Numbered from the stretch's first letter, positions 1,221 through 63,527 are shown. The stretch: DNA of 64,000 nt from an uncultured Acidobacteriota bacterium (GCA_963729875.1 CAVSPR010000004.1:442046-506045); one strand, 5' to 3'. Notes: generated by a model from the letters alone, not told the origin. A program made the numbers and translations.

Positions 1221-4124
1221 CTAGAACGTGAAGCGAACGCCGAGCCGGAGGCTGAAGGGCTGGGTGAACGCGACGCCCTTGTCGAGATAGTCGGGGTTGG
1301 TGGCACTCGCCCGCGGGTTGGGGATGGCACCCACAGGGTCGGTCGTGTCCGGGATGTACGCGATGCCGCCGCCGGCGCCGCAGAGGCCGTCGGGGATGCC
1401 CGCGCAGGGATCGCCGTCGGACACCAGGTTGTACCGCTCGTCGTACTGCGCGATGGCCTGGCGGTTGAACAGGTTGAACACGTCCGCGATCAAGTTGATC
1501 CGGGCCTTCTGGCCGACCTTGATCGGGTAGCTCAGGTGCAGGTCGGCTTCCCAGTCGCTCGGGCCGCGGCCCAGCGAGCCGCGCGGCACGAGGTAGTACT
1601 CCCAGTTGGCGTACCCGAAGGAGTAGCCGTAGGCGTTGAGCGGCAGGCCCGAGTAGTAGTAGGTGCTGAAGCCGACGTTCAGGCCGTCGAGGGCGCCCGA
1701 GAACTGGTAGCTGCCGTCGAACTTGAACTGGTGCTTGCGCTCGGCGGAGAGCGGCCCCTGGGCGTTGATCAGGAAGTCGGCGTAGTCGAAGGCCGAGTTG
1801 ATGTTCGGGTCGAGCTGGCCCGTCGAGTTCTGGAAGAGGCCGTCGTAGTTGCCCTCGAGCTTCGTCCAGACGTAGCTCGCCAGGAACTGCCAGTTGTTGG
1901 AGAAGCGCTTCCGGGCCGTGACCTCCCAGCTGTAGTTCTTGCGGTCGACCTTGGGCGCCGGCGCCGAGCCCACGTAGTCGTAGAAGTAGATGGTCTTGCC
2001 GAGGGTGCCTTCGCCCATGTTCGCGATCGCGTAGTTGCCATCCTGGTCGACGAGGAAGTCCTCGATCGCCCGGCCGAGGGTGCGGTAGGTGAACTTGGTG
2101 CCGAGGACGAAATTGGGCGCCACCTCGTACTCGAATCCCCCGAGGTACTCGTCGATGTACTGGCCCTTGAGCTCGGGGTCGACCGGCGTGGCGCCGCCGA
2201 GGGTGCTCGCGCGGGAGGGGGCGGAGGGGTCGTGGAAGATGTCGCTCGGGTTGGAGCTGAAGTTGTAGGCGAACGCCTGCACTTCCCCACCGAACGCGCG
2301 GATGTTGATGTCCTGCGGCACGTTCTCGTAGAACCGGCCGAAGTTGGCGTAGAGCTTGCTCTTGCCGTTCTTCGTGACGTCCCACATGAACCCGAGGCGC
2401 GGGGCCCAGTTCTGGTCGAGCTTGAACGCGCTCTCGCCGAACCGATCCTGCACGTCCTGCAGCTCGTAGCGCACGCCGAGGTTCAAGGTGATGTACGAGG
2501 TGACCTTCCAGCTGTCCTGGAAGTACGCGGAGTAGCTCTTCGAGCGGGGCTCGGAGGTGAGCGGGGCCGCGATCTGCCACGTGGTCGGGTCACTGCGCAC
2601 GTAGCCCGAGGCCTGGTCGTTGATGTAGTAGCGGTGGCGGTAGTAGACGATGCCGGTCGACGCCTGCCGCAGCTGGTAGATGCGCTGGCCGCCGCCACCG
2701 TTCCAGTTGTTGTTGATCGTGTTGGTCAGCTCGTAGTCGCCGCCGATCTTGATCTCGTGCTTGCCCAGGAACTTCGTGAGGTCGAGCTTGAAGACGTCAC
2801 GGGTGAACTCCTGGTCCTGGTGGAAGCCGAAGCCGTTGGCGACGGAGGTCGGGCTGACCGTCTGGTTGATGAGCTGCGGGATCGACTTGCCCGCGCCGTC
2901 GATCGTGCTCTCCTCCTGGTGGCGGCCGTACATGGCGCGGATCAGGAAGGTGTTGCTGAATGTGCCGTCGTAACGGGCCACCATGTCGGTGCTCCCGATC
3001 TTGTTGACGCCGTCCCAGGTGATCGCGGGGCCGGCGACGGTGAAGACGGGGCCGGTGATCTCGCCGGGGTCGCCGAAGATCGAGCCCGTGATGTTGTGGT
3101 TCGGGCTGAGGCTCCAGGTCAGCTTGCCGGCGAAGAGGTCGCGCTTCGTGTCGCGGGCGATGACCGAGCCGGGGACCGGGCTGCCGGGCGTGCTCAGCTG
3201 CCGGATCACCGAGATGTCGTCGGTGCGGTTCGTCCGGTTGTAGGCGCCGAAGAACCAGAGCTTGTCCTTGACCAGGTAGCCGCCGAGGTCGCCGCCGAAG
3301 TCCCAACGGTTGTTGATGTCAGTGACGGTGGTCGTGGTCTCGGGACGGAGGTCGGCCGTGCTGTCGTCGCTCTGGAGAGAGCCGCCCTCGTAGAACCCGA
3401 AGACGTCGCCCTTGAACTGGTTGCCGCCCGACTTGGTGAGGACGTTGATGACGCCGCCCGTCATGCGGCCGTACTCGGCGGGGAGGCCGCCCGTCTTGAC
3501 CTCGATCTCCTCGACGAAGTCGAAGTTGAGGGTCTTGCCCTGGTCGCCGACCTCGACGCCCGTCGTGTTGAGGCCGTCGATGATGTAGTTGTTCTCGGCG
3601 CCGGTGGAGCCGTAGACGACCATGCCGACGCCATCGTCCTGGGTGCCCGCGGCCACGCGCGCGATCGCGTAGATGTCGCGGCGGACCGGGAGGCGGTCGA
3701 AGAGGTCGGAGGTGGCGTTGACGCCCGTGGTCGTGCTCGTGGTGTCGATTACCGGCGACTCGCCGGTCACCTCGATCGTCTCGGACACCGTCGCGACCTC
3801 GAGCCTGACCGGGAGGGTCACGGTGCGGTCGAGGCCGACCACGACGCCGGTCTGGTTCACGGTCTTGAAGCCGGACAGCTCCACCCGGACCGTGTAGGTG
3901 CCCGGGGGCACCGACGGGAAGCGGAACTCACCGCTCTGGTCGGTGGTGGTCGTCTGGACCCCCTGGAGGCTGGGGCTGCTGGCCGTCACGACGACGCCGG
4001 GAATTCCCGCGGCGGAGTTGTCGGTGACGGTGCCCTGGATACGCCCCGACGTCTGGGCGAGCAGCGGGGAGGCGACCAGCAACAGGATCGCGATCGCCAC
4101 GAACGCTCTTACGGATTGTCTCAT
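1221..4124 (-). CDS. TonB-dependent outer-membrane receptor with N-terminal carboxypeptidase-regulatory-like domain
   Basis: 967-aa ORF. Signal peptide MRQSVRAFVAIAILLLVASPLLAQT, then SGRIQGTVTD...TYTVRVELSGFK (CarboxypepD_reg-like), a plug domain (NNYIIDGLN...GGVINVLTKSG) and a beta-barrel ending in an aromatic residue (RLGVRFTF). Confidence 0.85.
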   Translation of the reverse strand: MRQSVRAFVAIAILLLVASPLLAQTSGRIQGTVTDNSAAGIPGVVVTASSPSLQGVQTTTTDQSGEFRFPSVPPGTYTVRVELSGFKTVNQTGVVVGLDRTVTLPVRLEVATVSETIEVTGESPVIDTTSTTTGVNATSDLFDRLPVRRDIYAIARVAAGTQDDGVGMVVYGSTGAENNYIIDGLNTTGVEVGDQGKTLNFDFVEEIEVKTGGLPAEYGRMTGGVINVLTKSGGNQFKGDVFGFYEGGSLQSDDSTADLRPETTTTVTDINNRWDFGGDLGGYLVKDKLWFFGAYNRTNRTDDISVIRQLSTPGSPVPGSVIARDTKRDLFAGKLTWSLSPNHNITGSIFGDPGEITGPVFTVAGPAITWDGVNKIGSTDMVARYDGTFSNTFLIRAMYGRHQEESTIDGAGKSIPQLINQTVSPTSVANGFGFHQDQEFTRDVFKLDLTKFLGKHEIKIGGDYELTNTINNNWNGGGGQRIYQLRQASTGIVYYRHRYYINDQASGYVRSDPTTWQIAAPLTSEPRSKSYSAYFQDSWKVTSYITLNLGVRYELQDVQDRFGESAFKLDQNWAPRLGFMWDVTKNGKSKLYANFGRFYENVPQDINIRAFGGEVQAFAYNFSSNPSDIFHDPSAPSRASTLGGATPVDPELKGQYIDEYLGGFEYEVAPNFVLGTKFTYRTLGRAIEDFLVDQDGNYAIANMGEGTLGKTIYFYDYVGSAPAPKVDRKNYSWEVTARKRFSNNWQFLASYVWTKLEGNYDGLFQNSTGQLDPNINSAFDYADFLINAQGPLSAERKHQFKFDGSYQFSGALDGLNVGFSTYYYSGLPLNAYGYSFGYANWEYYLVPRGSLGRGPSDWEADLHLSYPIKVGQKARINLIADVFNLFNRQAIAQYDERYNLVSDGDPCAGIPDGLCGAGGGIAYIPDTTDPVGAIPNPRASATNPDYLDKGVAFTQPFSLRLGVRFTF

Positions 4125-4302
4125 CTCGGTTCAACTCCTCGTCAAAAGAACGATTTCTGGGACCGGCTGCATCGTGTCCTGGTCCCCTTTGACTCGTTTG
4201 AAAAAACGGGGTCGACAGTACTCTATGCAGGTCTCGTGCCACCCGTTCCGAGCCGTAAGTGCTGACGGATGAGAGGCCACCCCGTGCCCTACCGGAGAAG
4301 CC

Positions 4303-4337
4303 ATCCAATCGACTGGATCGCCTTCAGTCGATTGGAT
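4303..4337. promoter_or_regulatory. Perfect 13-bp inverted repeat ATCCAATCGACTG-N9-CAGTCGATTGGAT in the divergent intergenic region; candidate operator
   Basis: Seen directly in the sequence between the divergently transcribed TonB-receptor gene (start 4124, minus) and the hypothetical gene (start 4407, plus). Confidence 0.3.
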
Positions 4338-4406
4338 CGGCCCGGCGCGCGCTCTCTCCCGACGGGGGCCGGCGCTATAGAATTGCGGCGTCGCCAGGAG
4401 ACCGCC

Positions 4407-4898
4407 ATGGATGCCACTCTCGCCTCCCTTCTCTCCGCGCGCGCCGGCGCGATCGCCTCGGGCCTCGAGGCCTCCCTGCTGGCCCAGGACGCCCCGCACT
4501 ACCGGGACGCGCCGGTCGCGGCGCGGCGGGGGCGCGTCGAGCTCCTCGTCGCCGCGTTCCTCGAGGCGGCCCGCGCGGGCGGCCCCGCTCCCTTCGTCGC
4601 CCACGTCCGGGCAATCGCCGGGGAGCGCGCGGCCGAGGGGTACGACCTCCGCGAGGTCCAGCACGCGCTCGGCGCCCTGGAGGCGCAGGCCTGGCCGATC
4701 GTCGTCGAGGCGGGCGGCGAGACGGACGTCGTCGTGCGGCGCCTCGCCCTCGTCACCGGCATCGTCGGCCGGGGCAAGGACGAGCTGGCCCGCACCTTCC
4801 TCGACCACAAAGAAAGAGCCGAAGCCCGGGCCGCCCAGCTGGCCGACAGGCTCGACAAGCTGTTCAAGGGCACTGACTCGCCGCCTCAAGCGCAGTAG
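4407..4898 (+). CDS. Hypothetical alpha-helical protein, possibly an RsbRD-N-like sensory domain
   Basis: ORF 4269..4898; the first plausible ATG is MDATLASLL at 4407. Strong GC3 bias. No catalytic motif recognised. Confidence 0.45.
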   Translation: MDATLASLLSARAGAIASGLEASLLAQDAPHYRDAPVAARRGRVELLVAAFLEAARAGGPAPFVAHVRAIAGERAAEGYDLREVQHALGALEAQAWPIVVEAGGETDVVVRRLALVTGIVGRGKDELARTFLDHKERAEARAAQLADRLDKLFKGTDSPPQAQ

Positions 4899-4901
4899 CC
4901 G

Positions 4902-5471
4902 TCACGCGGGTCGGGACCCCCCGCGCAGCCAGTGGGGGAGCCGCTCGGCGCAGGACGCGCAGAAGTGCTTTCCCCGCGTGTCCACCCGCTCGATGTTGCC
5001 GGCGAAGCTCATGAGGCAGCCGCGGTCCGGGCAGTGCTCGAGGGTCGCGAGGTGCCCGAGCTCGTGGAGGACCTCGGCGATCGCGCGCTCGTCCCGCAGC
5101 TCGGGGTCCGGCGGCAGGCCGTAGAACGAGGGGTCCGTGCGGAGCAGGGAGACGACGCAGGCGCGTCCCCCCTGCCGGGCGAGGCCGAACACGAACGTGA
5201 AGAGGGGGACCGCGATGTCGTCCCCGGCGACGCCGACCACGAGGCGGGTGTCGCTCGACGCCCGGGCCTCGACCGCCTCGAGGAGCGCGTTCGCGTCGAG
5301 CTGGTCGCGGTTGGGGATTCGCCGGAGGGGAAGCTCGGCGCCGGCCAGCACGTGGCAGGCGACCTCCACCTTGCGGCTCAGCCGCGAAGCCAGCCGCTCG
5401 AGCGTGCCCGGCGGCAGCTCCCCGATGGGCAGCAGGTCGACCGCCTCCGCGAGACGGGCCGCCTCGAACAA
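4902..5471 (-). CDS. Archaemetzincin-like (peptidase M54) zinc metalloprotease
   Basis: HELGHLATLEHC fits the HExxHxxGxxH zinc motif, followed by a CxxC pair (CASC) as in archaemetzincins. Confidence 0.55.
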   Translation of the reverse strand: MFEAARLAEAVDLLPIGELPPGTLERLASRLSRKVEVACHVLAGAELPLRRIPNRDQLDANALLEAVEARASSDTRLVVGVAGDDIAVPLFTFVFGLARQGGRACVVSLLRTDPSFYGLPPDPELRDERAIAEVLHELGHLATLEHCPDRGCLMSFAGNIERVDTRGKHFCASCAERLPHWLRGGSRPA

Positions 5472-5478
5472 GGCCGCC

Positions 5479-6858
5479 TCAGCCCGCGCTCTCCGGCTTC
5501 TTGAGCTCGTACTTGCGGATCTTGTTGTAGAGCGTCACCCGGTCCACGTCGAGGATCCGCGCGGCCTTCGTGATGTTCCAGCCGCTCGCGTCGAGGACGG
5601 CCTGGACGTGGGCGCGCTCGGCCTCGGCGAGAGAGCCGGGGCCCGGCCCGGAGGACGGCGCCTGCGTGATCCGCAGCGGAAGGTCGGAAGCCTGCACGAC
5701 GTCGCCGCGGCCGACCACCACCGCGCGCTCGATGGCGTTCTGCAGCTCGCGGACGTTGCCGGGCCAGGGGTAGGCGGCGAGGGCGTCGAGCGCCTCGGGG
5801 GAGAACCGCATGGGCTTGCGGCTCATCGACTGGGCGAACTTCGCGAGGAACTGCTCGGCGAGCACCGGCAGGTCCTCGGGCCGCTCGCGCAGCGGCGGGA
5901 TGTGGACGTGGACGACGTTGAGCCGCCAGTAGAGGTCCTCGCGGAACGCCCCGGCCTTCACCGCCGCCTCGAGGTCGCGGTTGGTGGCCGAGATGATCCG
6001 GAAGTCGACGCTCACCGGGGTCGTGCCCCCGAGGCGGGTCACCACCTTCTCCTCGAGGACGCGGAGCAGCTCCACCTGCACCTTCGGGCTCACCTCGCCG
6101 ATCTCGTCGAGGAAGACCGTCCCGCCCTCCGCCGCCTCGAACTTGCCCTTGTGGCGGGCGCGGGCCCCGGTGAAGGCGCCCGCCTCGTGGCCGAAGAGCT
6201 CGCTCTCGAGGATCCCCTCGGGCAGGGCCCCGCAGTTGACGACCACCATCGGGTTGTAGCGGCGGGGGGAGGCGCCGTGGATGGCCCGCGCCACCACCTC
6301 CTTGCCCGTGCCCGACTCGCCGGTGATGAGGACGGTCGCGTCCGAGAGGGAGACCGTCTCGACGAGCTCCTGCACGTGGCGCATGGCGGCCGACGTGCCG
6401 AGCAGCGGCGGTGCCTCGGCCTGGCTCTCGAGGCTCTTCTTGAGGCGCACGTTCTCGGCCCGCAGGGAGCGGTGCTCGGCCGCGCGCTTGACCAGCATCG
6501 AGAGGTCGTCGGGGTCGAAGGGCTTGACGATGTAGTCGTAGGCCCCGTTCTTCATGGCCTTGACCGCGGTGTCCACCGAGGCGTAGGCCGTCATGAGCAC
6601 GATGCTCAGCTCGGGGTCGGCGGCGGCGAGCCGCGTCTGCAGCTCGAGGCCGTCCATCCCCGGCATCTTGATGTCGAGGAAGGCGATGTCGTAGCGGTTC
6701 GCGCTGACGAGGTGCAGGGCCTCCTTGCCGCTCTCCACCACGTCCACCCGGTGCCCGTCCTGGCGGAACCAGGCCCCGAGCGAGTCGCGCACGATCGTCT
6801 CGTCGTCGACGATCAGGATCCGCAGCGTGCCGGGGGCGATGCCGGTCGTCGCGCTCAT
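5479..6858 (-). CDS. Sigma54-dependent response regulator, NtrC family (REC + AAA+ sigma54-activator + Fis-type HTH)
   Basis: [20 protein letters not shown] receiver domain with D at DIKMPGMDG. ESGTGKE Walker A, GAFTGA sigma54-contact motif, C-terminal HTH ...ITKAARILDVDRVTLYNKIRKY. Start ATG overlaps the kinase stop (ATGA). Confidence 0.9.
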   Translation of the reverse strand: MSATTGIAPGTLRILIVDDETIVRDSLGAWFRQDGHRVDVVESGKEALHLVSANRYDIAFLDIKMPGMDGLELQTRLAAADPELSIVLMTAYASVDTAVKAMKNGAYDYIVKPFDPDDLSMLVKRAAEHRSLRAENVRLKKSLESQAEAPPLLGTSAAMRHVQELVETVSLSDATVLITGESGTGKEVVARAIHGASPRRYNPMVVVNCGALPEGILESELFGHEAGAFTGARARHKGKFEAAEGGTVFLDEIGEVSPKVQVELLRVLEEKVVTRLGGTTPVSVDFRIISATNRDLEAAVKAGAFREDLYWRLNVVHVHIPPLRERPEDLPVLAEQFLAKFAQSMSRKPMRFSPEALDALAAYPWPGNVRELQNAIERAVVVGRGDVVQASDLPLRITQAPSSGPGPGSLAEAERAHVQAVLDASGWNITKAARILDVDRVTLYNKIRKYELKKPESAG

Positions 6859-8476
6859 GCCTGGTCTCCCGCGAGGGCCGGGGTGCCCTCGCCCTCTCCC
6901 CGGGTCGTCTCCGCCTTCTCCGGCTGGCGCGCCGGCAGGCGGACGGTGAAGGTGGTGCCGCGGCCCGGCTCCGACTGGACGTCGATCGTCCCGTGGTGCC
7001 CGGTGACGATCCCGTAGACGACGGCGAGACCGAGCCCCACGCCCTTGCCCGCTTCCTTGGTGGTGAAGAACGGCTCGAAGATGCGGTCGAGGTGCTCCTT
7101 CGGGATGCCCCAGCCCGTGTCGGCGATCACGATCCGGACGCCGTCGCCGTCGCCCGCGGCCTCGATCGAGACGCGGCCGTCGGAGGGCGTCGCCTCGAGA
7201 GCGTTCATCGCGAGGGCGAGGATCACCTGCTGGATCTGGGCCGCGTCGACGACGACCTTCGGGAGGTCCGGTGCCACCCGCGTCTCGAGCGTGACGCCGA
7301 GCATCTCGGCCTGGTGCTTGAGCAGCATGCGGCACCGCTCGATCACGGGGGCGAGGTCCTCCTCGGCCAGGCGCGCGCCGGACTGCCGGCTGAACGCGAG
7401 GAGGTTGCGCACGATGTCGCCGCAGCGGCCGGCCTCGGAGTCCACCATCTGCAGGATGCGGTCGGTCTCGGCCGCCTGCTCGGGGGTGGGGGGCGGCGCC
7501 GCCCCGGCCGCGAACTGCCGCCGGAGGAGCCGCGCGTAGGTCTTGATGCCGGCCAGCGGGTTGTTGATCTCGTGGGCCACGACCGCGGCCAGCTTGCCGA
7601 GCGAGGCCATCTTCTCGACCACCACCATCTGGCGGTGCGTCTGCTCGAGCTGGTGCGTCTTCTCCTCGACCCGCTGCTCGAGCGTGCGGTTCAGGCCCTC
7701 CAGCTCCTCGCGGGCCTGCTTGAGGTCGCCCGTCATGTCGTTCCAGGAGCGGGCGAGCCCGCCCATCTCGTCGCTCGAGCGCACGGGGACGCGCGCGGTG
7801 AGGTCCCCCTCGCCGGCCCGCTCCATGGCCTTGCGCAGCCGCTTCACCGGGCGCAGGACGAAGGCCCACAGCATCAGGAAGCTGAGCAGGAGCACCGCAA
7901 TGCCGGTGGCGAAGAGCCCGTACTGCATCTGCCGCTCGGAGGTGGCGAGCACGGCGTCGGCCTGGGCCATCGAGAGCCGCACGTCGAGGATGCCGAGGAC
8001 CCGCTGCGACGCCGGGTGCACGTGGCAGGCCGTGCACTTGGGCTCGTTGTAGATGGGGGTGATGATGCCGAGGACGCGCCCGCCGTTCGACCCCGGGAGC
8101 ATCCGGATGCGGTCCTGGCGCTCGAGGCCCGCCTTGGGCTGCTCGCCCGCGTGGCAGGCGATGCACTCGTCGGAGCGCTTGTCGACGATCGTCCCTTCCT
8201 CGGCGGGGGCGGGAGGAGACGCGGACACGCCCCTCCTTGTTGTAGATGCGGACCCGGTCGACGCCCTCCTGGCCGGCGATGTTCTCGATGATGCGACGCA
8301 CGCCGTCGGCGTCGTTGCTGAGCATGCCGTCGTGGGCGGCTCGGTGGACGGTCTCCGCCACGCGGTCGGCGGAGATGCCGACCAGGTCCTCGAGCTGCGC
8401 GCGCTGGCGGTCGAGGCTCAGCTGGTCGGCGACCCAGAGAATGGCCGCGGCCCCGAGCCCGAGGCCGAGGCCCATG
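6855..8476 (-). CDS. Sensor histidine kinase with a periplasmic domain carrying two CxxCH c-type haem-binding motifs, then TM, HAMP, HisKA and HATPase; frameshifted near 8205-8215 in this sequence
   Basis: Intact frame 6855..8228 contains CIACH and [34 protein letters not shown]-box AHEINNPL and G-boxes DTGWGIP / GLGLAV. The N-terminal 83 aa ([21 protein letters not shown]...[15 protein letters not shown]) lie in another frame from ATG ~8476. Joining them needs one indel in a C/G run. Confidence 0.75.
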
Positions 8477-8543
8477 CGGACCGCGAGGCGCCTCCAGGGC
8501 TGGAGGCGCCTCGCGACGGAGGTAGCGGTTCGCAGCGGCGTGG

Positions 8544-9776
8544 TCAGCTCCTCACGGGTACGGCGGCCAGCGTGCCGGCGGGCGCCTCCGACCGGGCCAC
8601 GAGCTCGGGCTCCTCGACCTTCTCCATGATCGGGAGGAAGCGCACGGCGAGGCCGAAGACGGCCATGCCGATCCCCACCAGCATCAGCGTGATGATCCCC
8701 TCGGCGACACTCGGGACGTAGTGGCCTCCCTGGGTCCCCTCGAAGCCGGTGAGGCTCACGTTCAGGCGGTTCACCACGAGGCCGGCCACCACGAGGACGG
8801 ACGCCCGGAACAGCCTCTCGGAGTTGCGGCGGACGGCCGGCAGCGAAAGGAGCACCATGGGGAGGATAACCCCGATCGCCATCTCGAGCTGGAAGAACCG
8901 GGCCTCGCGGCTCCCGGCGAAGATCTCGCCGAGGACCCCCAGGCGCGCCATGTCGGCGAGGCGCACCGTGGCGTAGAAGCCGAGGGCGACGACGAGTCCC
9001 TTGGCCAGCGACTGCAGGAGCGGCATCTCGAGCCCCCTTCCGAAGGCCCGGGAGGAGAGGCGCGACTCGACGATCATCATCGCGAGGCCGCCCGCGATCG
9101 CGGAGAAGTAGAACATCCAGGACAGGAAGGGCGTGTACCAGAGCGGGTGGAGCTTGCCCGGGGTGATCAGGTAGAACGTGCCGAGCGAGGACTGGTGCAG
9201 GGTCGAGATGATGACGCCCGCGATCACCAGGGGCACCGTCGCCGCGTGCTGCACGGCGATCGCCTTCCTCCAGCCGAGCTTCTCGAACACGACGCCCGAG
9301 AACTCGAGGGCGAGGACCGTGAGGTACAGCATCACGCACCAGCCCACCTCGAACATCGGCGAGCGCGGGTTCCACATGATGATCGGGTGCCAGATGTTCC
9401 AGGGCTTGCCGAGGTCGTACATGAGGCCGACCGCGACCAGGGTGTAGCCGAGGAATGCGGTGAGGACCGTCGGCCGCACGATCGGCTTGAAGCGCTTCAG
9501 GTTGAAGACGTAGACGGCGGCCGTGATCGTGAAGCCGCCGGCGGCGAGAGCCACCCCGCACAGCACGTCGAACCCGATCCACAGCCCCCAGGGGAACCGG
9601 TCGGAGAGGTTCGTGACCGCGCCGAGGCCCTTCCAGAAGCGCAGGACGGTGACGACCGCGCCGGCGGCGAGGATCACGCCGAAGAGGTACGTCCAGAAGC
9701 CGGGGCGGAAGCGGTCGTTGGGGTTGATGGGCGTGAGAAGAGGCTGGAAAGGCCTCAGCAGCTTGGGCAGTCGCAT
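8544..9776 (-). CDS. NrfD/PsrC/HybB-family polytopic membrane subunit (quinone-interacting)
   Basis: Multi-TM protein (MRLPKLLRPFQPLLTPINPNDRFRPGFWTYLFGVILAAG...) typical of the NrfD family, immediately downstream of a 4Fe-4S subunit. Start ATG ~9776. Confidence 0.8.
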   Translation of the reverse strand: MRLPKLLRPFQPLLTPINPNDRFRPGFWTYLFGVILAAGAVVTVLRFWKGLGAVTNLSDRFPWGLWIGFDVLCGVALAAGGFTITAAVYVFNLKRFKPIVRPTVLTAFLGYTLVAVGLMYDLGKPWNIWHPIIMWNPRSPMFEVGWCVMLYLTVLALEFSGVVFEKLGWRKAIAVQHAATVPLVIAGVIISTLHQSSLGTFYLITPGKLHPLWYTPFLSWMFYFSAIAGGLAMMIVESRLSSRAFGRGLEMPLLQSLAKGLVVALGFYATVRLADMARLGVLGEIFAGSREARFFQLEMAIGVILPMVLLSLPAVRRNSERLFRASVLVVAGLVVNRLNVSLTGFEGTQGGHYVPSVAEGIITLMLVGIGMAVFGLAVRFLPIMEKVEEPELVARSEAPAGTLAAVPVRS

Positions 9777-9780
9777 GGTG

Positions 9781-10548
9781 TCACTCCTTCTCGCCGTGCT
9801 CGGCGGCCGCAACTTCCTCGCGCCGGTGGGTGATCCAGTAGATCGCCGAGAGGCCCACGGCGCCGCCGGCCACGACCTTGGGGATCTTCGACAGCGCCGC
9901 CCAGGTGAGGTTCGGCATCGGGTCGTTGCCGAGGCCGACCTTCATCCCGAGCTGCTCGAAGGGGACGGGGGAGAGGACGAAGACGTTCGTGCCTCCCACC
10001 GTGTGCTCGCCGTAGATCACGGGGTGGTACGCGCCGGGGTTCTCGGCGAGGCGCTTCTTCGCCTCGGCCAGCATCTCCTCGCGGGTGCCGCCGACCGTCG
10101 CCTCGGCCGGGCAGGCCTCGGTGCACGCGGTCGGCTTGCCGTCCTTCTGCCGCTCGAAGCAGCCGTCGCACTTGCGGACGACGGGGATCGGCTTCGACCA
10201 CTCGTAGCGCGGCACGTTGAAGGGGCAGGCGATCATGCAGTACCGGCAGCCCATGCACTTCGAGGCGTCGTAGACGACCGGGCCGAGCTCGGTTTTGGTG
10301 AAAGCGCCGACCGGGCACGCGCTCACGCAGCTCGGGTCGGCGCAGTGCATGCACATGCGGCGCAGGTAGCGGTCCTCGCCCTTGTCGAGGACCACGGTGT
10401 AGGTGGTCGCGTCGAGCTCCGTCTCCTCGCCGGTGCCGGGGAACTCGTGCGAGGCCTTGCAGGCCTTGGCGCACTCGTGGCAGCCGACGCAGCGGGTGAC
10501 GTCGAAGAGCAGGGCCCGCGACTTCGGGTTGGGCATCATCAGGGCCAT
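9781..10548 (-). CDS. 4x[4Fe-4S] ferredoxin-type iron-sulfur subunit (PsrB/HybA/FdnH-like) with C-terminal TM anchor; no Tat signal
   Basis: Four Cys clusters (CVGCHECAKAC, CMHCADPSCVSACP, CMGCRYCMIACP, CDGC...C...CP) and a C-terminal helix AGGAVGLSAIYWITH. Confidence 0.85.
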   Translation of the reverse strand: MALMMPNPKSRALLFDVTRCVGCHECAKACKASHEFPGTGEETELDATTYTVVLDKGEDRYLRRMCMHCADPSCVSACPVGAFTKTELGPVVYDASKCMGCRYCMIACPFNVPRYEWSKPIPVVRKCDGCFERQKDGKPTACTEACPAEATVGGTREEMLAEAKKRLAENPGAYHPVIYGEHTVGGTNVFVLSPVPFEQLGMKVGLGNDPMPNLTWAALSKIPKVVAGGAVGLSAIYWITHRREEVAAAEHGEKE

Positions 10549-10584
10549 GGTTCCTTGTCTCCTCAGAGGGGTGGTGTCGGCGCC

Positions 10585-11268
10585 CTAGGTGAGCAGGAAC
10601 TCGTGGACGAGGCGCTCCCAGTCCGCCGACGGCAGGTGGTCGCCCAGGTCGGAGGCGGGCTCGCCGCCGTCCTGCAGCACCGAGCCGGAGAACGCCATGA
10701 GCCGCACCTCGAGGGCCTCGCGGCTGTCCTCCATCCACTTGCGGGCGAGACGGCCCGAGAGGAGGTTCCGGAGGTTGTCGGCGAGGTTGGGGGCCTTCAC
10801 CTTGAGCACCCAGCCGCGGCCGTAGGGGTCCTCGCCGGCGAGGTCCGGCTTGCCGCCGAGCTCGGGGTTGACCTCGACGACCTCGCCCTCGACCGGCGAG
10901 ACGAGCGTGGCTGCCTTGCCGTTGACCTTCATGGCGAAGGCGCGCCCGCCCTGGTGGAGCCAGTCGCCGCGCGAGGGGGACTGGACGGTGGCGGCGGTCC
11001 CAATCAGGCGGCGGGCGAAGTCGTCGACGCCGATGAGGACGGTGTTGGCGTCCAGCGGGCGGGCCCAGGTGTGCCCGCGGTGGTAGTAGAGGGACTCCGG
11101 CATCTGGTAGCCGGCCACCCAGGCGGGCTCGACGGAGGGCATCGCCGCGGTGGCGAGGGCCCTGGACTCACGCGCGAGCCGGTGACGGGTCACCAGGTAG
11201 TCCATGGTGATGAGAGCAACGAAGAACGCAAGAACGAGCATGACAGTCATGACCGCACCTCCGACCAC
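10585..11268 (-). CDS. Membrane-anchored glycine-cleavage H-protein-like (lipoyl-domain) protein
   Basis: N-terminal TM (MTVMLVLAFFVALITMDYLV). Residues HRGHTWARPLDANTVLIGVDDFA...AMKVNGKAATLVSPVEGEVVEVNPEL...DPYGRGWVLKVK match the GcvH fold, including the conserved lipoyl-lysine position. Confidence 0.6.
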   Translation of the reverse strand: MVGGAVMTVMLVLAFFVALITMDYLVTRHRLARESRALATAAMPSVEPAWVAGYQMPESLYYHRGHTWARPLDANTVLIGVDDFARRLIGTAATVQSPSRGDWLHQGGRAFAMKVNGKAATLVSPVEGEVVEVNPELGGKPDLAGEDPYGRGWVLKVKAPNLADNLRNLLSGRLARKWMEDSREALEVRLMAFSGSVLQDGGEPASDLGDHLPSADWERLVHEFLLT

Positions 11269-11612
11269 CCCCTATTGCAAGACCGAGTCCCACCGTTGGG
11301 TCGAGGTGTTGAGAAGCTCGCAATCGACTGAAAACAAAGGGGAACTGCAAGCGACAGGAAGTTCAACGCCTTCCCCGGATGGTGTTGAAGATCTCGTCGA
11401 TCCCCGAGCGGCCCACGTGGAGTTCTTGTCCAAACCCATTCACAACAGTGGGTTGCCTTCCGCGTTGAGGAATTCAGCATGTCGATGAAAGACTCAACAG
11501 CCCTCCAGCGTGAGCGATCCGGGTCGATTTGGAGACCTGGGGGCCCTGGGATCTCGGGAGTGAGCGACCGACCCCGGGACGCACGCGACAAGGCCGCGGC
11601 GCCTTCGCTATC

Positions 11613-13430
11613 ATGGGCGGCGTGAACGACTTGCGAGTGCCGCTCCTCTCGCGGCTCGAGCGCGCGCTCGAGGACCGGCGGCGCCTCGTGCTCGCGGTGT
11701 TCGTCGCCCTTCTCGTCCTCGCCCGTGCCCTGTACTTCGCAGAGCTGTCCGGCAGCCCTCACCTCGTCCAGCACCTCTGGGAGCAGTCGGACATGAGCTT
11801 CTTCGACCGCTGGGGCCGGGCGGTCGCCGAGGGCGACTGGCTCTCGCGGCGGGTCGCGCACCCGGTCCACCTCTGGCACGCCGACGTCGCGTTCGCGTGG
11901 CTGCGGGACCACCCGGCGGAGATCGCGAGGCTCGTGCCCCCCGGAGGGAGTCGCGAAATGGCGGCGGTGGCGCTCTGGGACCGCTGGTACGGGGGGCCGA
12001 CCTTCCACCAGGAGCCGCTCTACCCCTATCTCGTCGGACTCACCTACCTTCTCTTCGGCCCCGACGTCCGGTACGTCTTCGCGTGGCAGCTCCTGGTCGG
12101 CGTCGGCACCGGCGTGCTCCTTCTGCTCCTCGCCCGGCGGCTCTTCGGCCACGTGGTGGGCGCGACGACCGCCTTCCTCACCGTCCTCTGCAGCCCGCTT
12201 CTCTACTACGAGCTCGTCCTCCTCCGCGAGACGTTGATCGTCGGCGCCGGGCTCCTGCTGGTGGCGGCCACGGTGTGGGCGCTCGAGCGGCGGGGCTTCG
12301 GGGCGTGGCTCCTCGTGGGCCTCGTCTGCGGCCTCGCCCTCCTGCTCAAGTCGAGCGTGGCCCTCATGCTGGCCGGGACGGGGCTCGGCCTCTTCCTCGT
12401 TCTCCGCCGCACTCCCCGGGACCTCCGGCGAGCGGCCGGCGGTCTCGCCCTCGGTCTCGCCATGGCCCTCGGTCCCGCCGTGGCCCGCAACCTGGCGGTC
12501 GGCGTCCGGCCCTTCGCGCTCTCGAGCGTCGGGACCATCACCTTCGTGAACGCCAACGCCGAGGACGCCCGGCCGGAGCGGGGCTTCTCCGTGAGCCGTC
12601 ACGCCGCGGCCATCATGGGCGAATCCGGCGGCCGCTTCGCCCCGGCGGCCCTCGCCGCGCTGCGCACCCATCCCGACCTCTCGAGCTACCTGCGCCAGCT
12701 CGGGAGCAAGCTCGCCACCGCCTGGCACTGGTACGAGCTCCCGAACAACAGCAACTTCTACCAGTACCGCGCGGAGGCACCCGTCCTCCGCCTGCCCTTC
12801 ACCTTCGCGCTCGCCGGGCCTCTCGGCCTCCTCGGCCTCGTCCTCGCCGCCTCCCGCTGGCGGTCGGTCTGGCCTCTCGTCCTGCTCGCGGCCACGAGCC
12901 TGCTCACCATGCTCGTCTTCTACCCGCTCTCGCGCTTCCGCGCACCGATGCTCGCGGCGCTCGTGCCGTTCGCCGCCTTTGCCGTCGTGCGGACCGCCGA
13001 CCTGCTCGCCTCGGGGCGCATCCGGCACGGCGTGGCGGCCGTGCTCGCCTTCCTCGGCCTCGCCGCCTGGATGGGGCGCCCCCTCCCGCCGACGGAGTCG
13101 CTCGTGCGCGGCTCCGACTGCCGCGTCCCCGTCGAGTTCGTCTACCGCCCGGCCCTCGACCGCGCCGCGCGGCAGGAGGCGTGGGGGGCGGTCGCGAGGC
13201 TCGGCGAGCGCGCGCTCGAGGGCGAGCCGGCGGCGGTGCGGCGGATCGGCGCGGAGCCGGTGCCCCTGAACGACCACGACCGGCAGTGCGCCGTCGTCTT
13301 CGCCGAGCTCTCGGAGCGCACCGCCGATGCCCTGGACCGGCTCGGGCGCACCGAGGCGGCCGGTCGGCACCACGAGCGGGCCCGCGTTCTCGTGACCGCG
13401 GCCCGGAGCTACCCGCCGGTCGGCGGCTGA
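11613..13430 (+). CDS. GT-C fold membrane glycosyltransferase (ArnT / PMT, GT39/GT83-like)
   Basis: 606-aa polytopic protein with an N-terminal TM bundle and a periplasmic-loop region (WDRWYGGPTFHQEPLYPYLVGLTYLLFG) typical of ArnT/PMT-type transferases. Start ATG 11613 (MGGVNDLRVP). Confidence 0.55.
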   Translation: MGGVNDLRVPLLSRLERALEDRRRLVLAVFVALLVLARALYFAELSGSPHLVQHLWEQSDMSFFDRWGRAVAEGDWLSRRVAHPVHLWHADVAFAWLRDHPAEIARLVPPGGSREMAAVALWDRWYGGPTFHQEPLYPYLVGLTYLLFGPDVRYVFAWQLLVGVGTGVLLLLLARRLFGHVVGATTAFLTVLCSPLLYYELVLLRETLIVGAGLLLVAATVWALERRGFGAWLLVGLVCGLALLLKSSVALMLAGTGLGLFLVLRRTPRDLRRAAGGLALGLAMALGPAVARNLAVGVRPFALSSVGTITFVNANAEDARPERGFSVSRHAAAIMGESGGRFAPAALAALRTHPDLSSYLRQLGSKLATAWHWYELPNNSNFYQYRAEAPVLRLPFTFALAGPLGLLGLVLAASRWRSVWPLVLLAATSLLTMLVFYPLSRFRAPMLAALVPFAAFAVVRTADLLASGRIRHGVAAVLAFLGLAAWMGRPLPPTESLVRGSDCRVPVEFVYRPALDRAARQEAWGAVARLGERALEGEPAAVRRIGAEPVPLNDHDRQCAVVFAELSERTADALDRLGRTEAAGRHHERARVLVTAARSYPPVGG

Positions 13431-15995: not shown

Positions 15996-16859
15996 TCACA
16001 CCTCCCGCAGGCCGAAGAAGCGCTGGATCCGGTCGTAGGGGAAGACCGGGCCGTCCTTGCAGACGAACCACGGCCCGAACTGGCAGTGGCCGCACACCCC
16101 CACCGCGCACTTCATGTTCCGCTCCATCGAGACGAAGATCCTCGACCCGGACGTGCCCCGCTGCTCGAGGGCCTGGGCGGCGTAGCGGATCATGACCTCG
16201 GGGCCGCAGATGAAGGCCATCGCGCTCGTGGGGTCGAAGGGGGAGCGCTGCACCATCTTGGTCACCACCCCCACCGCGCCCTGCCACTCCATGGTGGCGC
16301 GGTCCACGGTCACGTCCACCACCACGTCGAAGCGGCTGCGCCACTCGCGCAGCTCCTTCGGGTACAGCATGTCCCGCGGGGTCCGCGCGCCGTAGAGGAT
16401 CACCACCCGGCCGTAGAGGGCGCGGTGGAGGAGCACGTGGTAGATCGCCGGCCGGATGGGGGCGAGGCCGATCCCGCCCGAGATCAGGATGACGTCGTGG
16501 CCGTGGGCCTGGTCCACCGGCCACGACGTGCCGAAGGGGCCGCGCACGCCCACCCAGTCGCCCTTCTCCAGCTTCTGCATGGCCCGGGTGGTGGCTCCCA
16601 CGGACCGGATGGTGTGCACGAGGATCTCGGGCCTCGCGGGGTCGCCGCTGATCGAGATCGGGACCTCGCCCACCCCGAAGACGTAGAGCATGTTGAACTG
16701 GCCGGGGGCGAACGGGCGGAACTTCGCTCCCCCGACCGGGGCCAGGGTCAGGGTGAAGGTGTCGCCGGTCTCCTGCGTGACGTGACGCACCACGAACGGC
16801 TCCGGCCGCATCGGGTCGGAGGCGGAGACGGTGGCCGAGGAGGGCTCAGTCGTTGCCAT
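15996..16859 (-). CDS. hydG: Hydrogenase gamma subunit: FAD/NAD(P)-binding oxidoreductase with C-terminal 2Fe-2S (PyrK-like)
   Basis: FNR-like fold ([15 protein letters not shown]...[11 protein letters not shown]) and [10 protein letters not shown] cluster. Confidence 0.8.
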
Positions 16860-17306
16860 AGAGGTCCAGGAGCTGCATGCGGGTCGCCTCGAGACGGGAG
16901 ATCGCGAGCTGGGCGAAACGCTTCAGGAGCTCGTAGCCGAAGCCCGGGTCCTTCTCGCACTTCGTGCGCAGGCACGACCCGTCGAGCGAGAGCGCGCGGA
17001 CGGCGTTCATGGCCCGCGCGTCGAAGAAGGTCTTGTAGGGGGGGAACATCCAGGACCAGCCGAGCACCTCGCCGCCCTCGATCGTCTCGATGGTGACCGG
17101 CCCCTTGTTGGGGACGAAGACCTCGACCGCGACCTTGCCCTCGCGGACGACGAAGAAGCGGTCGGCGGCCTCCCCCTCCCGGAAGACGAACTCCCCCGGC
17201 TGGAACACGACGTTCGCGACGCACCCCACGACCGTGTCCAGGTAGGGCGCGGGCAGGTCCTTGAAGAAGGGGTGCTCCCCGAGGATCTTCTCGAAGGTGT
17301 GGATCG

Positions 17307-17310
<4 letters not shown>
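16846..17310 (-). CDS. Cyclic-nucleotide-binding (Crp/Fnr-type cNMP) domain protein embedded in the hydrogenase operon
   Basis: C-terminal part of ORF 16846..18507: FFKDL...[29 protein letters not shown]...GEVLGWSW matches a cNMP-binding beta-barrel. GTG start overlaps the hydB stop (GTGA). Confidence 0.55.
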
Positions 17311-18491
<1,181 letters not shown>

Positions 18492-19649: not shown

Positions 19650-20527
19650 TGAGCTCACGCGTCCCCCTTCCGCCTCCCCGGCGACCGGATTGGATCCGGG
19701 CGAGGGCTCCGCACGGCCCCGTCTACGAGGGCCTCAAGAGCCTCATGCGGGGTCTCGAGCTCCACACGGTCTGCGAGGAGGCCCACTGCCCGAACCTCGG
19801 CGAGTGCTGGGGGCGCGGCACCGCCACGTTCATGATCCTGGGGGAGACCTGCACGCGGGCGTGTGGCTTCTGCGCGGTCAAGACGGGACTGCCCGGGCAG
19901 CCGCCGGACCCTGACGAGCCCCGGCGCGTCGCCGACGCCGCCACCCGGATGGGGCTGCGCCACGTCGTGGTCACGTCCGTCAACCGCGACGACCAGCCGG
20001 ACGGGGGGGCCGGGATCTTCGCCGCCACGGTCCGCGAGCTGCGGGCGCGGGTTCCCGCCTGTGCCATCGAGGTCCTGATCCCCGACTTCAAGGGACGGTG
20101 GGACGCGCTCCAGGTCGTGCTGGACGCACGTCCCGACGTCCTCAACCACAACGTCGAGACGGTTCCTCGCCTCTACCGCCAGGCGCGGGCGGGGGCGAGC
20201 TTCGCGCGCTCGCTCGAGCTGCTGAGCAGGTCGAAGCACGCAGGGCTCCTCACCAAGAGCGGGATCATGGTCGGCCTCGGCGAGGAGTGGGCCGAGGTCG
20301 AGGAGACGATCCGGGCCATTCGCTCCGCGGGCGCCGACATCCTGACGGTCGGACAGTACCTCAGGCCCTCGCCCCAGCACCTGCCGGTCCTTCGGTACTA
20401 CCCCCCGGAGGAGTTCGAGCGGCTCCGGTCCTTCGCGCTGGGCCTGGGCTACGCCCACGTCGAGTCGGGCCCGCTCGTGCGCTCGAGCTACCACGCCGAG
20501 AGGCATGTGCCGGTGACGGCTCCGTAG
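19650..20527 (+). CDS. lipA: Lipoyl synthase
   Basis: [13 protein letters not shown] and radical-SAM [10 protein letters not shown] motifs. GTG start predicted at ~19650. Confidence 0.85.
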
Positions 20528-59502: not shown

Positions 59503-59652
59503 TGCCCCGCCCGGCGCCACGGCGCCGGGCGGAAGGACGATGAACACGCTCTCACCGAGGCTCTGGGGCAGGGACGGCCGGAGTATGGTGCGCTCGCGGG
59601 GAAGCGGTCGAGAGGGGGCACCGTCCAGGTCCGCCCGCGCTTCGCGCGGGCG

Positions 59653-61311
59653 GTGCGTATGAACGTCGCCCTGGACGGTCGGCTCCGGCGGCTGATGCTG
59701 TTCCGGGTGGTCATGGTGACCACCCTGCTCTTCCTCGTCACCTACGTCGAGGCGGTGTCGGAGACGCTCTTCGACGTCAACCCCGTCTACTTCGTCGTCG
59801 TCGCGACCTACGCCCTCACCGTCGTCTACGCCCTCGCGCTGCGCTTCGTGCCGCAGGGGGTGCCGCAGGCCTACGCCCAGGTGGTGGGGGACCTCCTCAT
59901 CATCACGGCCCTCGTGCAGGTCACCGGCGCCATCCGCACCGGCTTCCTGCTTCTGTACCCGCTCGCGGTGCTGGCCGCCGCCATGCTGGTGCCGAGGCGG
60001 GGCGCGCTCTACCTCGCGGGGCTGGCGACCGTGCTCTACGGGGGCCTGCTCCTGACCGTGCGCTCGGGGCTCCTGCTTCCCTACGGCCTGCGGGACGTGC
60101 TCGACGCCCCGCCGCGCGCGCTCGTCTACTCGGTCTTCGTGCTGGGGGTGGCCTGCGTGACGGTCGCCCTGCTGGGCACGTACCTGGCCGAGAGCCTGCA
60201 GCACGCCGGGAGGCAGCTGCGGGAGGCCGCGGTGGAGGTGGCCGACCTGCGCGGCCTCAACCAGGTCATCGTCGACAGCATCCAGAGCGGCCTGATGACG
60301 ACGGACGGCGAGGGCCGGATCCTGTACGTCAACGCCTTCGGCGAGAAGATCCTCGGGCGGCCGGCGGCGGCCGCGATAGGGCGCACGGTGCGCGAGCTGC
60401 TCGCGACGCCGCTGCTCGGCGGCCCCGAGCTCCAGGTGCGGGTCGCACGCCGGTCGCTCGCCCGGCTGGAGCTGTCCTACCAGCATCCCGAGGGTCGGCA
60501 GCGGGAGCTCGGGGTGTCGGTGACCCCGCTGGCGACCGGCGCCAGCGACCGGGGCGGCTACCTCGTGGCCTTCCAGGACCTGACCGAGATCCGCCGGCTC
60601 GAGCAGGAGGTGCGGACCAAGGAGAAGCTCGCGGCGGTGGGGGAGATGGCGGCCCTGCTCGCCCACGAGATCCGCAACCCGCTGGGCTCCATCCGGGGCT
60701 CGGCGCAGGTGCTCATGGGCGAGCCGGGCATCGCCGGCGAGCAGCAGCGCCTGCTCGAGATCATCTCCCGCGAGTCCAAGCGCCTCTCCGACACGCTCAA
60801 CCGCTTCCTCTACGAGGCCCGCTCGCCCGCCCGCCCGCGCGACCCGGTGGACCTCCGGCCGGTCCTGGAGTCGGCGGTCACGCTGCTACGCAACGCGGCC
60901 GAGGTGGGTCCGAGCCACGAGATTCGCTTCGAGGCGGACGAGGGCCCCCACGTGTGCCTGGCCGACCCGGACCAGATCGCGCAGGTATTCTGGAACCTCG
61001 CCCGCAACGCCCTCGAGGCGATGCCGGAAGGAGGGCGTCTCGACGTGGCCCTGCGCCGCACGGAGGGGGACGTCGTGCTGAGCGTGCGCGACCAGGGCCG
61101 GGGCATGGGCCGCGACGAGCAGCGCCGCCTCTTCGAGCCCCTGCCCGCCTCGGGTCGGCTGGGCGCCGGCCTCGGGCTCGCCATCGTCTTCCAGATCGTC
61201 CGCCAGCACGAGGGGGACATCACCGTGAAGAGCGTGGCCGACCAGGGCACGCAGTTCGACGTTCGGCTTCCCCTCGTCTCCGCCGGAGCACCGGCGGCCG
61301 CCCCGGCATGA
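59653..61311 (+). CDS. pilS: Sensor histidine kinase PilS (polytopic membrane domain, PAS, HisKA, HATPase)
   Basis: Six predicted TMs, a PAS-like region, H-box LAHEIRNPLGSIRGS, and N/G boxes. Confidence 0.85.
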   Translation: MRMNVALDGRLRRLMLFRVVMVTTLLFLVTYVEAVSETLFDVNPVYFVVVATYALTVVYALALRFVPQGVPQAYAQVVGDLLIITALVQVTGAIRTGFLLLYPLAVLAAAMLVPRRGALYLAGLATVLYGGLLLTVRSGLLLPYGLRDVLDAPPRALVYSVFVLGVACVTVALLGTYLAESLQHAGRQLREAAVEVADLRGLNQVIVDSIQSGLMTTDGEGRILYVNAFGEKILGRPAAAAIGRTVRELLATPLLGGPELQVRVARRSLARLELSYQHPEGRQRELGVSVTPLATGASDRGGYLVAFQDLTEIRRLEQEVRTKEKLAAVGEMAALLAHEIRNPLGSIRGSAQVLMGEPGIAGEQQRLLEIISRESKRLSDTLNRFLYEARSPARPRDPVDLRPVLESAVTLLRNAAEVGPSHEIRFEADEGPHVCLADPDQIAQVFWNLARNALEAMPEGGRLDVALRRTEGDVVLSVRDQGRGMGRDEQRRLFEPLPASGRLGAGLGLAIVFQIVRQHEGDITVKSVADQGTQFDVRLPLVSAGAPAAAPA

Positions 61312-61411
61312 CCGGACCCGCCCGGAAGGGTGCGCCACCCGCGCTTGAGGGATGCGCGACCGAGAGGGTAGCATTCGTGCGGTCACGGCACAGAGAGGAG
61401 GGGCGCGCGAG

Positions 61412-62782: not shown

Positions 62783-62789
62783 CCCGTTG

Positions 62790-63474: not shown

Positions 63475-63493
63475 GCTGGCTCGCGCCGCACGT

Positions 63494-63527
63494 GGGGCCC
63501 GGGGGCGACCCCGGGCCTCCTTTTTTT
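63494..63527 (+). terminator. Rho-independent terminator GGCCCGGGGG-cgac-CCCCGGGCC followed by TTTTTTT, downstream of pilA1
   Basis: Seen directly: a perfect GC stem plus a 7-T tract. Confidence 0.65.

Follow-up and report, generated by a model that had tools for sequence, protein, structure and literature searches.

A conserved six-gene cassette combining a predicted di-haem sensor kinase, a sigma54-dependent regulator and a HybA/HybB-like membrane module in Acidobacteriota and other phyla

The six-gene cassette and its distribution

The window analysed here is a 64,000-nucleotide stretch of DNA from an uncultured Acidobacteriota bacterium (GCA_963729875.1 CAVSPR010000004.1:442046-506045). 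Its G+C content is about 70% and the nearest relatives of its proteins are found in metagenome-assembled genomes of Vicinamibacteria (Acidobacteriota). A compact block of six genes on the minus strand (4902-11250) encodes a membrane-anchored protein with the fold of the glycine cleavage H-protein GcvH (hereafter H), an iron-sulfur (Fe-S) protein (B), a membrane protein of the NrfD family (C), a sensor histidine kinase, a sigma54-dependent response regulator and an archaemetzincin-type (M54) protease. An earlier note on this DNA had listed five co-directional minus-strand genes at 5479-11268; these are present, but the sixth gene, the archaemetzincin at 4902-5471, was overlooked.

A species-level scan, with one genome per species, identified 80 loci, and gene order was assessed in the 50 that had at least 7 kb of sequence downstream of H. 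The order H-(H2)-B-C-kinase-regulator-M54, with H2 as a second H paralogue, is colinear in 37 of the 50 loci, and five others keep the usual arrangement minus B and C. The remaining loci are rearranged or broken up by IS200, toxin-antitoxin or PadR genes; in some loci, a gap between H and B holds either the second H paralogue or an insertion of one of these same kinds. The cassette was found in several classes of Acidobacteriota as well as in Planctomycetota, Krumholzibacteriia, Latescibacteria, Eisenbacteria and Binatia. A Gemmatimonadota contig carries H and the start of B, and is too short to hold more. The six-gene cassette is conserved across soil and sediment bacteria from at least seven phyla. 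Insertions break up the cassette at loci L050 (10901-11353) and L075 (11251-15175), the inserted genes being an IS200-type transposase, or a PadR regulator together with a DUF2442 protein.

A metagenome scan with a more distant H subfamily, recognised by a conserved N-terminal ATKGIEY peptide, identified a sister clade. The same six families are present there, ordered either as B-C-H-kinase-regulator-M54 or with B-C-H convergent to M54-regulator-kinase. Since the six families recur in another order, their association points to a functional linkage and not to an inherited gene order. Two modules can be distinguished because each persists together through the rearrangements: a membrane module of B, C and H, and a regulatory module of the kinase, the regulator and the M54 protease.

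The absence of a catalytic subunit beside B and C, remarked upon in the earlier note, was borne out in the window and in about 50 related loci; when the survey was widened to about 130 loci, no enzyme partner for the pair was found in the cassette or its flanks. The possibility that B and C are the tail of a larger operon lost to assembly was also tested. H is the first gene of the operon even where the genes upstream of it are quite different, which argues that no catalytic subunit was lost in this way. An all-versus-all clustering of the flanking open reading frames (ORFs) revealed no further conserved neighbour family, yielding only lineage-specific hydrogenase genes and one downstream family (a tRNA methyltransferase, judged by position) in at most nine loci. 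In the window, a divergent PMT_2 glycosyltransferase gene lies upstream of the cassette with a group 3b NiFe hydrogenase operon beyond it, and the next gene downstream is convergent. No Rfam family was detected within 4000-12000, and no useful sigma70 promoters or terminators within 4100-11600. Literature searches for the cassette, for a GcvH-like protein with NrfD and for fusions of a receiver (REC) domain to GcvH returned no relevant description. Within the literature searched, the cassette is undescribed.

The sensor kinase, its regulator and the candidate promoter

The sensor kinase gene (6855-8475, minus strand) is broken as assembled: the reading frame changes after the N-terminal 90 codons, which cover the first transmembrane (TM) helix and the beginning of the sensor, and the other 449 codons follow in the new frame. 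The break falls at a run of five cytosines with one extra base (8205-8209, minus strand). Deletion of one C from this run restores a kinase of 539 amino acids (aa) that is colinear with intact orthologues, such as the 541-aa protein of GCA_035542035. All 16 of the alignable orthologous DNA segments are one nucleotide (nt) shorter at the run, and many split genes occur on contigs of the same study ('contig_N', ERZ250394xx). Because the orthologues lack the extra base and the contigs of this study are full of split genes, the +1 frameshift is probably a long-read homopolymer error. The frameshift nevertheless stands in the sequence as given, and were it real, the kinase would be a pseudogene and the system dead in this organism. 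This is improbable given that the lesion is a single base in a homopolymer on contigs where split genes are common, that every orthologue is in frame, that the other cassette genes are intact and that both halves of the kinase retain a coding-type composition.

The repaired kinase consists of a first TM helix, a periplasmic sCache_heme domain with two predicted haem sites, a second TM helix, and HAMP, HisKA and HATPase regions (Pfam: Mcp40H-20_sensor, HAMP, HisKA, HATPase_c). A domain search of the periplasmic region returned PF21563 above its cut-off (32.7 bits against 27), and the PDB matches were 3b47 and 3b42, both haem-c sensor domains from Geobacter. In an AlphaFold model of the kinase (predicted local distance difference test, pLDDT = 83), a five-stranded Cache-type sheet comes between a long N-terminal helix and a second TM helix, and helices 2-52 and 170-220 border the sensor domain. 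A Foldseek search with the sensor model identified the Cache domains of WalK, KinD, CitA and DctB in addition to 3b42 and 3b47. Two CxxCH motifs, CIACH (104-108) and CTACH (147-151), are situated between the TM helices, as the earlier note had proposed without noticing the broken reading frame, and a cytoplasmic location of the sensor is not supported by the model. CTACH occupies a short helix (145-148) between strands 133-142 and 159-168 and aligns to the Geobacter CxxCH, while CIACH lies on an extra helix within an insertion at about residues 88-122.

Conservation of the motifs is high. The first CxxCH is kept in about 55 of 58 orthologues and the second is Cx2-4CH across the orthologues, with Cx3CH or Cx4CH in many. 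In a wider alignment, C104, C107, H108, C147, C150, H151, H153 and M51 are invariant or nearly so, and both haem motifs are present in all 22 sister-clade kinases. The kinases of loci L034, L048 and L054 (Planctomycetota, Acidiferrales and Binatia) have lost the first CxxCH and kept the second, and B and C are still there.

The Geobacter GSU0582 and GSU0935 domains (3B47, 3B42) were reportedly first described as haem-containing redox sensors. Like them, the present sensor is an extracytoplasmic single-Cache domain between two TM helices that is fused to a signalling module and has a conserved Met on the N-terminal helix as a candidate distal ligand. It differs in having a second near-invariant CxxCH and in its output, where a histidine kinase that has a sigma54 partner takes the place of a chemoreceptor. 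The sCache_heme family, defined by the position of its CXXCH on a short helix between beta strands, unites the GSU0582/GSU0935 domains with DUF3365/Tll0287, and its signalling-coupled members have properties resembling those of nitric oxide (NO) sensors (preprint PMC12889525). With its second near-invariant CxxCH on an inserted helix, the sensor is a di-haem variant of this known haem-c Cache type, haem attachment being predicted from the motifs.

The regulator gene (5479-6858, minus strand) overlaps the kinase stop codon with its start (ATGA). The earlier note's pairing of a sigma54 NtrC-type regulator with a haem-c sensor kinase is supported by the domains found, namely Response_reg, Sigma54_activat (2.7e-69) with GAFTGA at residue 227, and HTH_8, in a REC, AAA+, HTH_8 arrangement. 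The top NCBIfam models for the regulator are AtoC, NtrC and ZraR, and the kinase core is nearest to AtoS and ZraS. The adjacent, overlapping genes are also a feature of ZraSR and AtoSC; in contrast to these systems, the sensor domain and the co-encoded genes are different and all scores fall under the equivalog cut-offs.

A candidate sigma54 promoter with a -24 GG and a -12 GC (GGGACTCGGTCTTGCA, 11276-11291, minus strand) is located about 25 nt upstream of the H start codon. When aligned with four orthologous and otherwise diverging regions, GG-N10-GC and TTGCA are invariant. A site matching at least 8 of 11 consensus positions occurs upstream of H in 57 of 85 loci, against 6.4 expected from shuffled sequences (about ninefold), and GG-N10-GC sites are found before H in different phyla. 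Where H and B are spaced by 190-400 nt, a second sigma54-type site (TGGCAGGCGGATTGCC or similar) is found about 45 nt before B; Terriglobia loci are among those in which B has a sigma54-type promoter of its own.

Beyond the promoter, 15-200 nt upstream of it, a candidate activator-binding region (11305-11498, minus strand) contains direct and inverted repeats. A repeat search identified the direct repeat CGAG(C/A)T(T/C)TTCAACACC at 11305-11320 and 11381-11396. Inverted repeats built on GTTGA/TCAAC are at 11352-11399 and 11464-11498, and the TCAAC/GTTGA columns are conserved in the upstream alignment A1. No convincing second copy of the candidate activator site CTTCTCAACACC was identified in the window. 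Autoregulation by the cassette's own regulator would be the simplest reading of this arrangement.

A scan of the window with TGGCAC-N5-TTGC revealed no enrichment (32 observed, 42 expected by chance). The sigma54 promoters that the earlier note had placed at the pilA genes were confirmed as two identical copies of TGGCAGGCGGATTGC at 62868 and 63662, beside genes for PilS (6TM_PilS-PAS-kinase), the sigma54 activator PilR and a pilin at 59503-63700 (plus strand). The same 15-mer is also the promoter before B in Terriglobia cassettes, which probably reflects mere closeness to the consensus. Just past the cassette, a further site one mismatch from the sigma54 consensus (TGGCACGAGACCTGC, 4227-4241, minus strand) lies about 100 nt upstream of a gene for a CarboxypepD_reg/TonB-dependent-receptor-like outer-membrane protein (1221-4124). 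In locus L004, but not in L002, the cassette is followed by part of a similar gene.

The M54 gene (4902-5471, minus strand) always follows the regulator and remains beside it even where the regulatory module is inverted. Its product matches Peptidase_M54 (2.4e-20, 73.8 bits against a cut-off of 24.4) and scores 130.2 with the NCBIfam model, where the cut-off is 145. The zinc site HELGHLATLEH and the HELGHLATLEHC...C...CxxC pattern are present, and HExxHx5H is retained in 49 of 52 M54 orthologues.

The membrane proteins B, C and H

The B gene (9781-10548, minus strand) encodes a HybA/HmcB-like protein of 255 aa with a C-terminal TM anchor (Pfam Fer4_11). It contains exactly 16 Cys residues in four ferredoxin motifs (20/23/26/30, 66/69/74/78, 98/101/104/108 and 127/130/142/146), consistent with four [4Fe-4S] clusters. 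The highest NCBIfam scores, 247.8 bits for HmcB and 200.5 for HybA, are below the respective cut-offs of 420 and 263. B is 40% identical to mature E. coli HybA; the alignment begins at HybA residue 33, after the twin-arginine translocation (Tat) signal, and the start codon of B precedes the first cluster motif by 12 residues. A clear twin-arginine signal is present on B of the sister clade. The C-terminal tail was found in 62 of 63 B orthologues, and in B itself the helix is followed by HRR. On average, 3.5 Lys/Arg residues follow the helix and 1.5 precede it, as in tail-anchored Tat substrates that face the periplasm.

The C gene (8544-9812, minus strand; likely start ATG 9776) encodes a HybB/HmcC-like member of the NrfD family (Pfam NrfD 5.8e-23) with ten predicted TM helices. 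As with B, the NCBIfam scores are under the cut-offs (HmcC, 339 bits against 550; HybB, 282 against 450). The earlier note was correct on a 16-Cys 4Fe-4S protein with a C-terminal TM anchor and on an NrfD-family membrane protein, and the HybAB half of its "PsrBC/HybAB-like" label fits; the PsrBC half does not, the top matches being HmcB/HmcC and HybA/HybB. A sequence search of C against the PDB identified no match. C and E. coli HybB share 31% identity over 376 aa, with D58, R89, Y99, E148 and H184 conserved; the last four have been the subject of HybB mutagenesis, as cited in PMC8076601. Both termini of C are predicted to be inside, with an N-in topology in both clades, and among 50 orthologues the Lys and Arg count is 18.4 in the segments predicted inside and 7.1 in those outside. 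This canonical topology places the Fe-S partner in the periplasm. B and C look functional from their sequences and are predicted to face the periplasm.

Three known systems provide a frame for comparison. B and C resemble E. coli HybA and HybB in the 16 Cys residues and C-terminal tail of the one and in the functional residues R89, Y99, E148 and H184 of the other; unlike E. coli hydrogenase-2, the cassette has no HybO or HybC, and B of the window's clade has no Tat signal. Desulfovibrio HmcB and HmcC, the top NCBIfam models, form a pair that connects a periplasmic c-type cytochrome to the membrane, but the cassette is without the 16-haem HmcA and without HmcD, HmcE and HmcF, and the scores are far under the cut-offs. 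HybA-like/HybB-like pairs are usually encoded beside c-type cytochromes, and stand-alone modules of a C-tail Fe-S protein, a HybB-like quinol oxidase and a c-type cytochrome have been described (bioRxiv 10.1101/2023.11.02.564894). The present pair is similarly an orphan beside a c-type cytochrome and not beside an enzyme. In contrast to those modules, the cytochrome is a kinase sensor, and the cassette further includes a GcvH-fold protein, a sigma54 regulator and a protease. Among the approximately 130 loci, no hydrogenase or multihaem cytochrome was identified as an operon partner of C, leaving the kinase as the sole haem protein.

H (10585-11250, minus strand) is a protein of 221 aa with an N-terminal TM helix, a GcvH fold and a C-terminal helical extension that carries a QDGG motif. 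Its likelier start is ATG 11250, where the earlier note had taken GTG 11268. H has a Pfam GCV_H domain, an excellent H-protein fold and about 30% identity to genuine H-proteins; the NCBIfam GcvH scores are under the cut-offs (82.1 against 117 and 73.7 against 115.85). The TM helix and the fold agree with the earlier description of a membrane-anchored GcvH-like lipoyl-domain protein, but the lipoyl-lysine is absent. An ungapped BLAST alignment puts K65, the lipoyl-lysine of the E. coli protein, opposite Gly111. Among 143 members of the H family, this column is Gly in 94, Ser in 20, Asp in 12 and Lys in 3. The adjacent column is Arg, His, Lys or Glu, and Lys112 of the window protein is not conserved. 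Since Gly replaces the lipoyl-lysine, the candidate role of H as a lipoyl carrier was rejected. H retains the barrel-sandwich fold of GcvH, of the sHdr-associated LbpA and of Streptococcus pyogenes GcvH-L (5A35); unlike these carriers, it is membrane-anchored with a conserved QDGG extension and has no gcvT/P or hdr genes nearby.

The lipoyl question also extends to the neighbouring genes. A lipA gene about 8 kb away had been noted, and its position was confirmed (19688-20512, plus strand, 8.4 kb; 80% identical to the lipoyl synthase of locus L002). The adjacency was seen in the window and one Vicinamibacteria relative only and is regarded as coincidental, and the supposed link to H did not hold. 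Between lipA and the cassette, a conserved sigma54-type promoter (TGGCGTTCCCTTTGCA, 18476-18491, minus strand) precedes the Shine-Dalgarno sequence of the group 3b hydrogenase operon by about 35 nt; this promoter is also found in loci L001 and L002. An imperfect palindrome, TTTTTCGCGG ... CGCGGAAAAA, is situated about 70-110 nt further upstream. From these neighbours, it could be supposed that H, with its true H-protein fold, is a lipoylated carrier served by lipA and that the two-component system mainly controls the NiFe hydrogenase, which adjoins the cassette in several Vicinamibacteria. The chance of this is very slim: the lipoyl column is Gly, Ser or Asp in 126 of the 143 members, no repeat common to the upstream regions of the cassette and the hydrogenase was seen by eye, and hydrogenase genes are near the cassette in only 12 of 85 fetched loci (9 of 80 at species level), all from close Vicinamibacteria relatives. 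A general linkage of the cassette to hydrogenases was rejected, as the adjacency is confined to Vicinamibacteria, where it is possible that the regulator drives the group 3b hydrogenase. Within the hydrogenase operon, a single ORF (16846-18448, minus strand) combines a beta-type subunit (Fer4_22-like) with a cyclic-nucleotide-binding domain in the window and likewise in L001; in L002, the same pair is encoded by two overlapping genes (378 and 155 aa). The single ORF may be either a real fusion or a single-base assembly error.

An Arg/Lys-rich segment directly follows the TM helix in all members of the H family, so that the H domain is predicted to be cytoplasmic. Short H proteins accompany a signal-less B in 64 loci and extended H proteins accompany a Tat-bearing B in 27, with two exceptions. 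From this coincidence between the loss of the Tat signal on B and the loss of the periplasmic N-terminal peptide of H, it could be argued that the module of the window's clade faces the cytoplasm. A signal-less B would dock the H domain, encoded by a close neighbour, in an H-B-C complex on the N-side laid out like SoeABC, with H replacing the catalytic subunit. NrfD-family complexes with cytoplasmic peripheral subunits do exist, SoeABC being one example (PMC8076601). This arrangement is nonetheless distinctly improbable. The colinearity of C with HybB, together with an N-in topology common to both clades, makes the face that docks B periplasmic, and the Lys/Arg bias around the C-terminal helix of B points the same way. 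H has no redox cofactor or Cys to offer such a complex. The correlation itself is a split between two clades and so amounts to a single evolutionary event.

Relatives of H occur as parts of larger proteins. REC-GCV_H or TM-REC-GCV_H fusions were identified in proteins P0171 and P0376-P0378 and in two genes of locus L088. In P0152 and P0200, a signal peptide precedes a tetrahaem cytochrome c, after which come an ATKG(V/I)EY TM helix and GCV_H. P0144 joins three GCV_H domains to a flavin adenine dinucleotide (FAD) oxidase, a ferredoxin domain and two CCG domains (HdrD/GlcF-like), and in P0192, P0243 and P0257, the GcvH-like domain accompanies a duplicated Cys-rich N-terminal region. Such fusions to REC domains, cytochromes and FAD-oxidase/CCG proteins set the family apart from the GcvH carriers. 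In the fused members examined by eye (the first domain of P0144, and P0171), there is no lysine at the lipoyl position. The fusions suggest that the H domain serves redox and signalling systems as an adaptor or an output element.

Additional H genes were observed in some loci. In sister-clade locus L088 (920-4025), a REC-GCV_H gene, a TM-REC-GCV_H gene and a second TM-GCV_H paralogue are upstream of B. Terriglobia loci L057, L058, L059, L076 and L055 have a tandem second H (about 225-250 aa, about 30% identical to H) between H and B, at about 60-750 nt after H. Many sister-clade H proteins (for example, P0383 and P0403) carry PF28260.1 in their precomputed annotation.

A proposed circuit and its main rival

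The reading preferred here, to which a probability of roughly 40% is assigned, is that the cassette encodes a sensor of redox state or NO that activates itself, with B and C connecting its haems to the quinone pool. The kinase would project its single-Cache domain and two c-type haem motifs into the periplasm, and its autophosphorylation would alter when the haems change redox state or when a small ligand, for example NO, is bound. The phosphorylated regulator would then activate the sigma54 promoter before the cassette, inducing H, B and C in a positive autoregulatory loop. B and C would serve as a menaquinone-interacting Fe-S pair of the HybA/HybB (HmcB/HmcC) type that carries electrons between the quinone pool and the haems of the sensor, such that the kinase either reads the quinone pool or is re-reduced by it. 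This transfer is proposed by analogy, because the kinase is the only cytochrome of the cassette and such pairs normally partner a periplasmic cytochrome. Sensing of the quinone pool, an idea already put forward in the earlier note, is plausible in this setting. H, tethered at the cytoplasmic face, may serve the membrane module as an adaptor or a regulatory subunit, given that its relatives include fusions to receiver domains and to multihaem cytochromes anchored in the membrane. The analysis establishes the gene content, the folds, the synteny and the conservation of motifs and promoter, whereas haem loading, the nature of the signal, the promoter bound by the regulator, electron transfer from B-C to the haems and the parts played by H and the protease are inferred.

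Several observations weigh against this proposal. The five loci without B and C retain H, the kinase, the regulator and the protease, and the kinases there have both haem motifs; conversely, three loci with B and C have lost the first haem motif. B-C and the extra haem therefore do not co-vary. A Tat signal or N-terminal extension on B is absent in about 60 orthologues of the window's clade and no exported partner for B is encoded in the cassette, leaving its route to the periplasmic haems unexplained. H has neither Cys nor cofactor and its assigned role is guesswork. On the side of regulation, the window promoter GGGACTCGGTCTTGCA fits just 7 of 11 consensus positions, sigma54 promoters within 220 nt upstream of the sister-clade B were not above the level of shuffled sequences, and the kinase of this genome is frameshifted as assembled.

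In the main rival, B, C and H are a regulated output, that is, an inducible quinone-linked module anchoring a periplasmic enzyme or cytochrome whose gene lies elsewhere in the genome. The kinase and the regulator would govern only the timing of its production. Having no signal of its own, B would be exported by hitchhiking through the Tat pathway with its partner, and no electrons would pass between B and the haems. Signal-less B-type subunits, such as FdnH and the HybA-like protein beside an FeFe hydrogenase, are exported with their partners, and B has a C-terminal tail of the HybA/FdnH type and is encoded beside an N-in HybB-like protein. The sigma54 promoter that B has to itself in Terriglobia loci and the lack of co-variation between B-C and the haem motifs are also consistent with an output. 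In spite of these points, the rival is rather unlikely. No candidate partner is conserved near the cassette in the approximately 130 loci, and in the sister clade, B has a Tat signal and is still without an enzyme partner. Close linkage of B-C to this particular di-haem kinase across phyla and gene orders would be unexpected for a generic anchor.

A further step may be taken with respect to H. The lysine-less GcvH fold with its QDGG tail could be an unrecognised signalling or adaptor domain that carries state between the di-haem kinase, or the periplasm, and the HybAB-type module, the whole forming a new sensory complex coupled to the respiratory chain. This extension is doubtful.

Two-component redox sensing is understood mainly from kinases that are cytoplasmic or bind quinones, such as ArcB, RegB, FixL and DosS, and the periplasmic haem-c Cache sensors were defined as a family only recently. 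If the proposal is true, the cassette would be a compact and widespread case of a periplasmic haem sensor hard-wired to a quinone-interacting Fe-S module, and it makes the question of what reduces or resets such a sensor directly testable. The tail-anchored B protein, having lost a Tat signal that the sister clade retains, is a useful puzzle in protein export. The H family has consequences for annotation as well, since a large family labelled as glycine cleavage H is not lipoylatable and would lead to false counts of glycine cleavage genes in Acidobacteriota and other soil phyla. With fusions to receiver domains and cytochromes, the H fold points to a regulatory use that is as yet unexplored.

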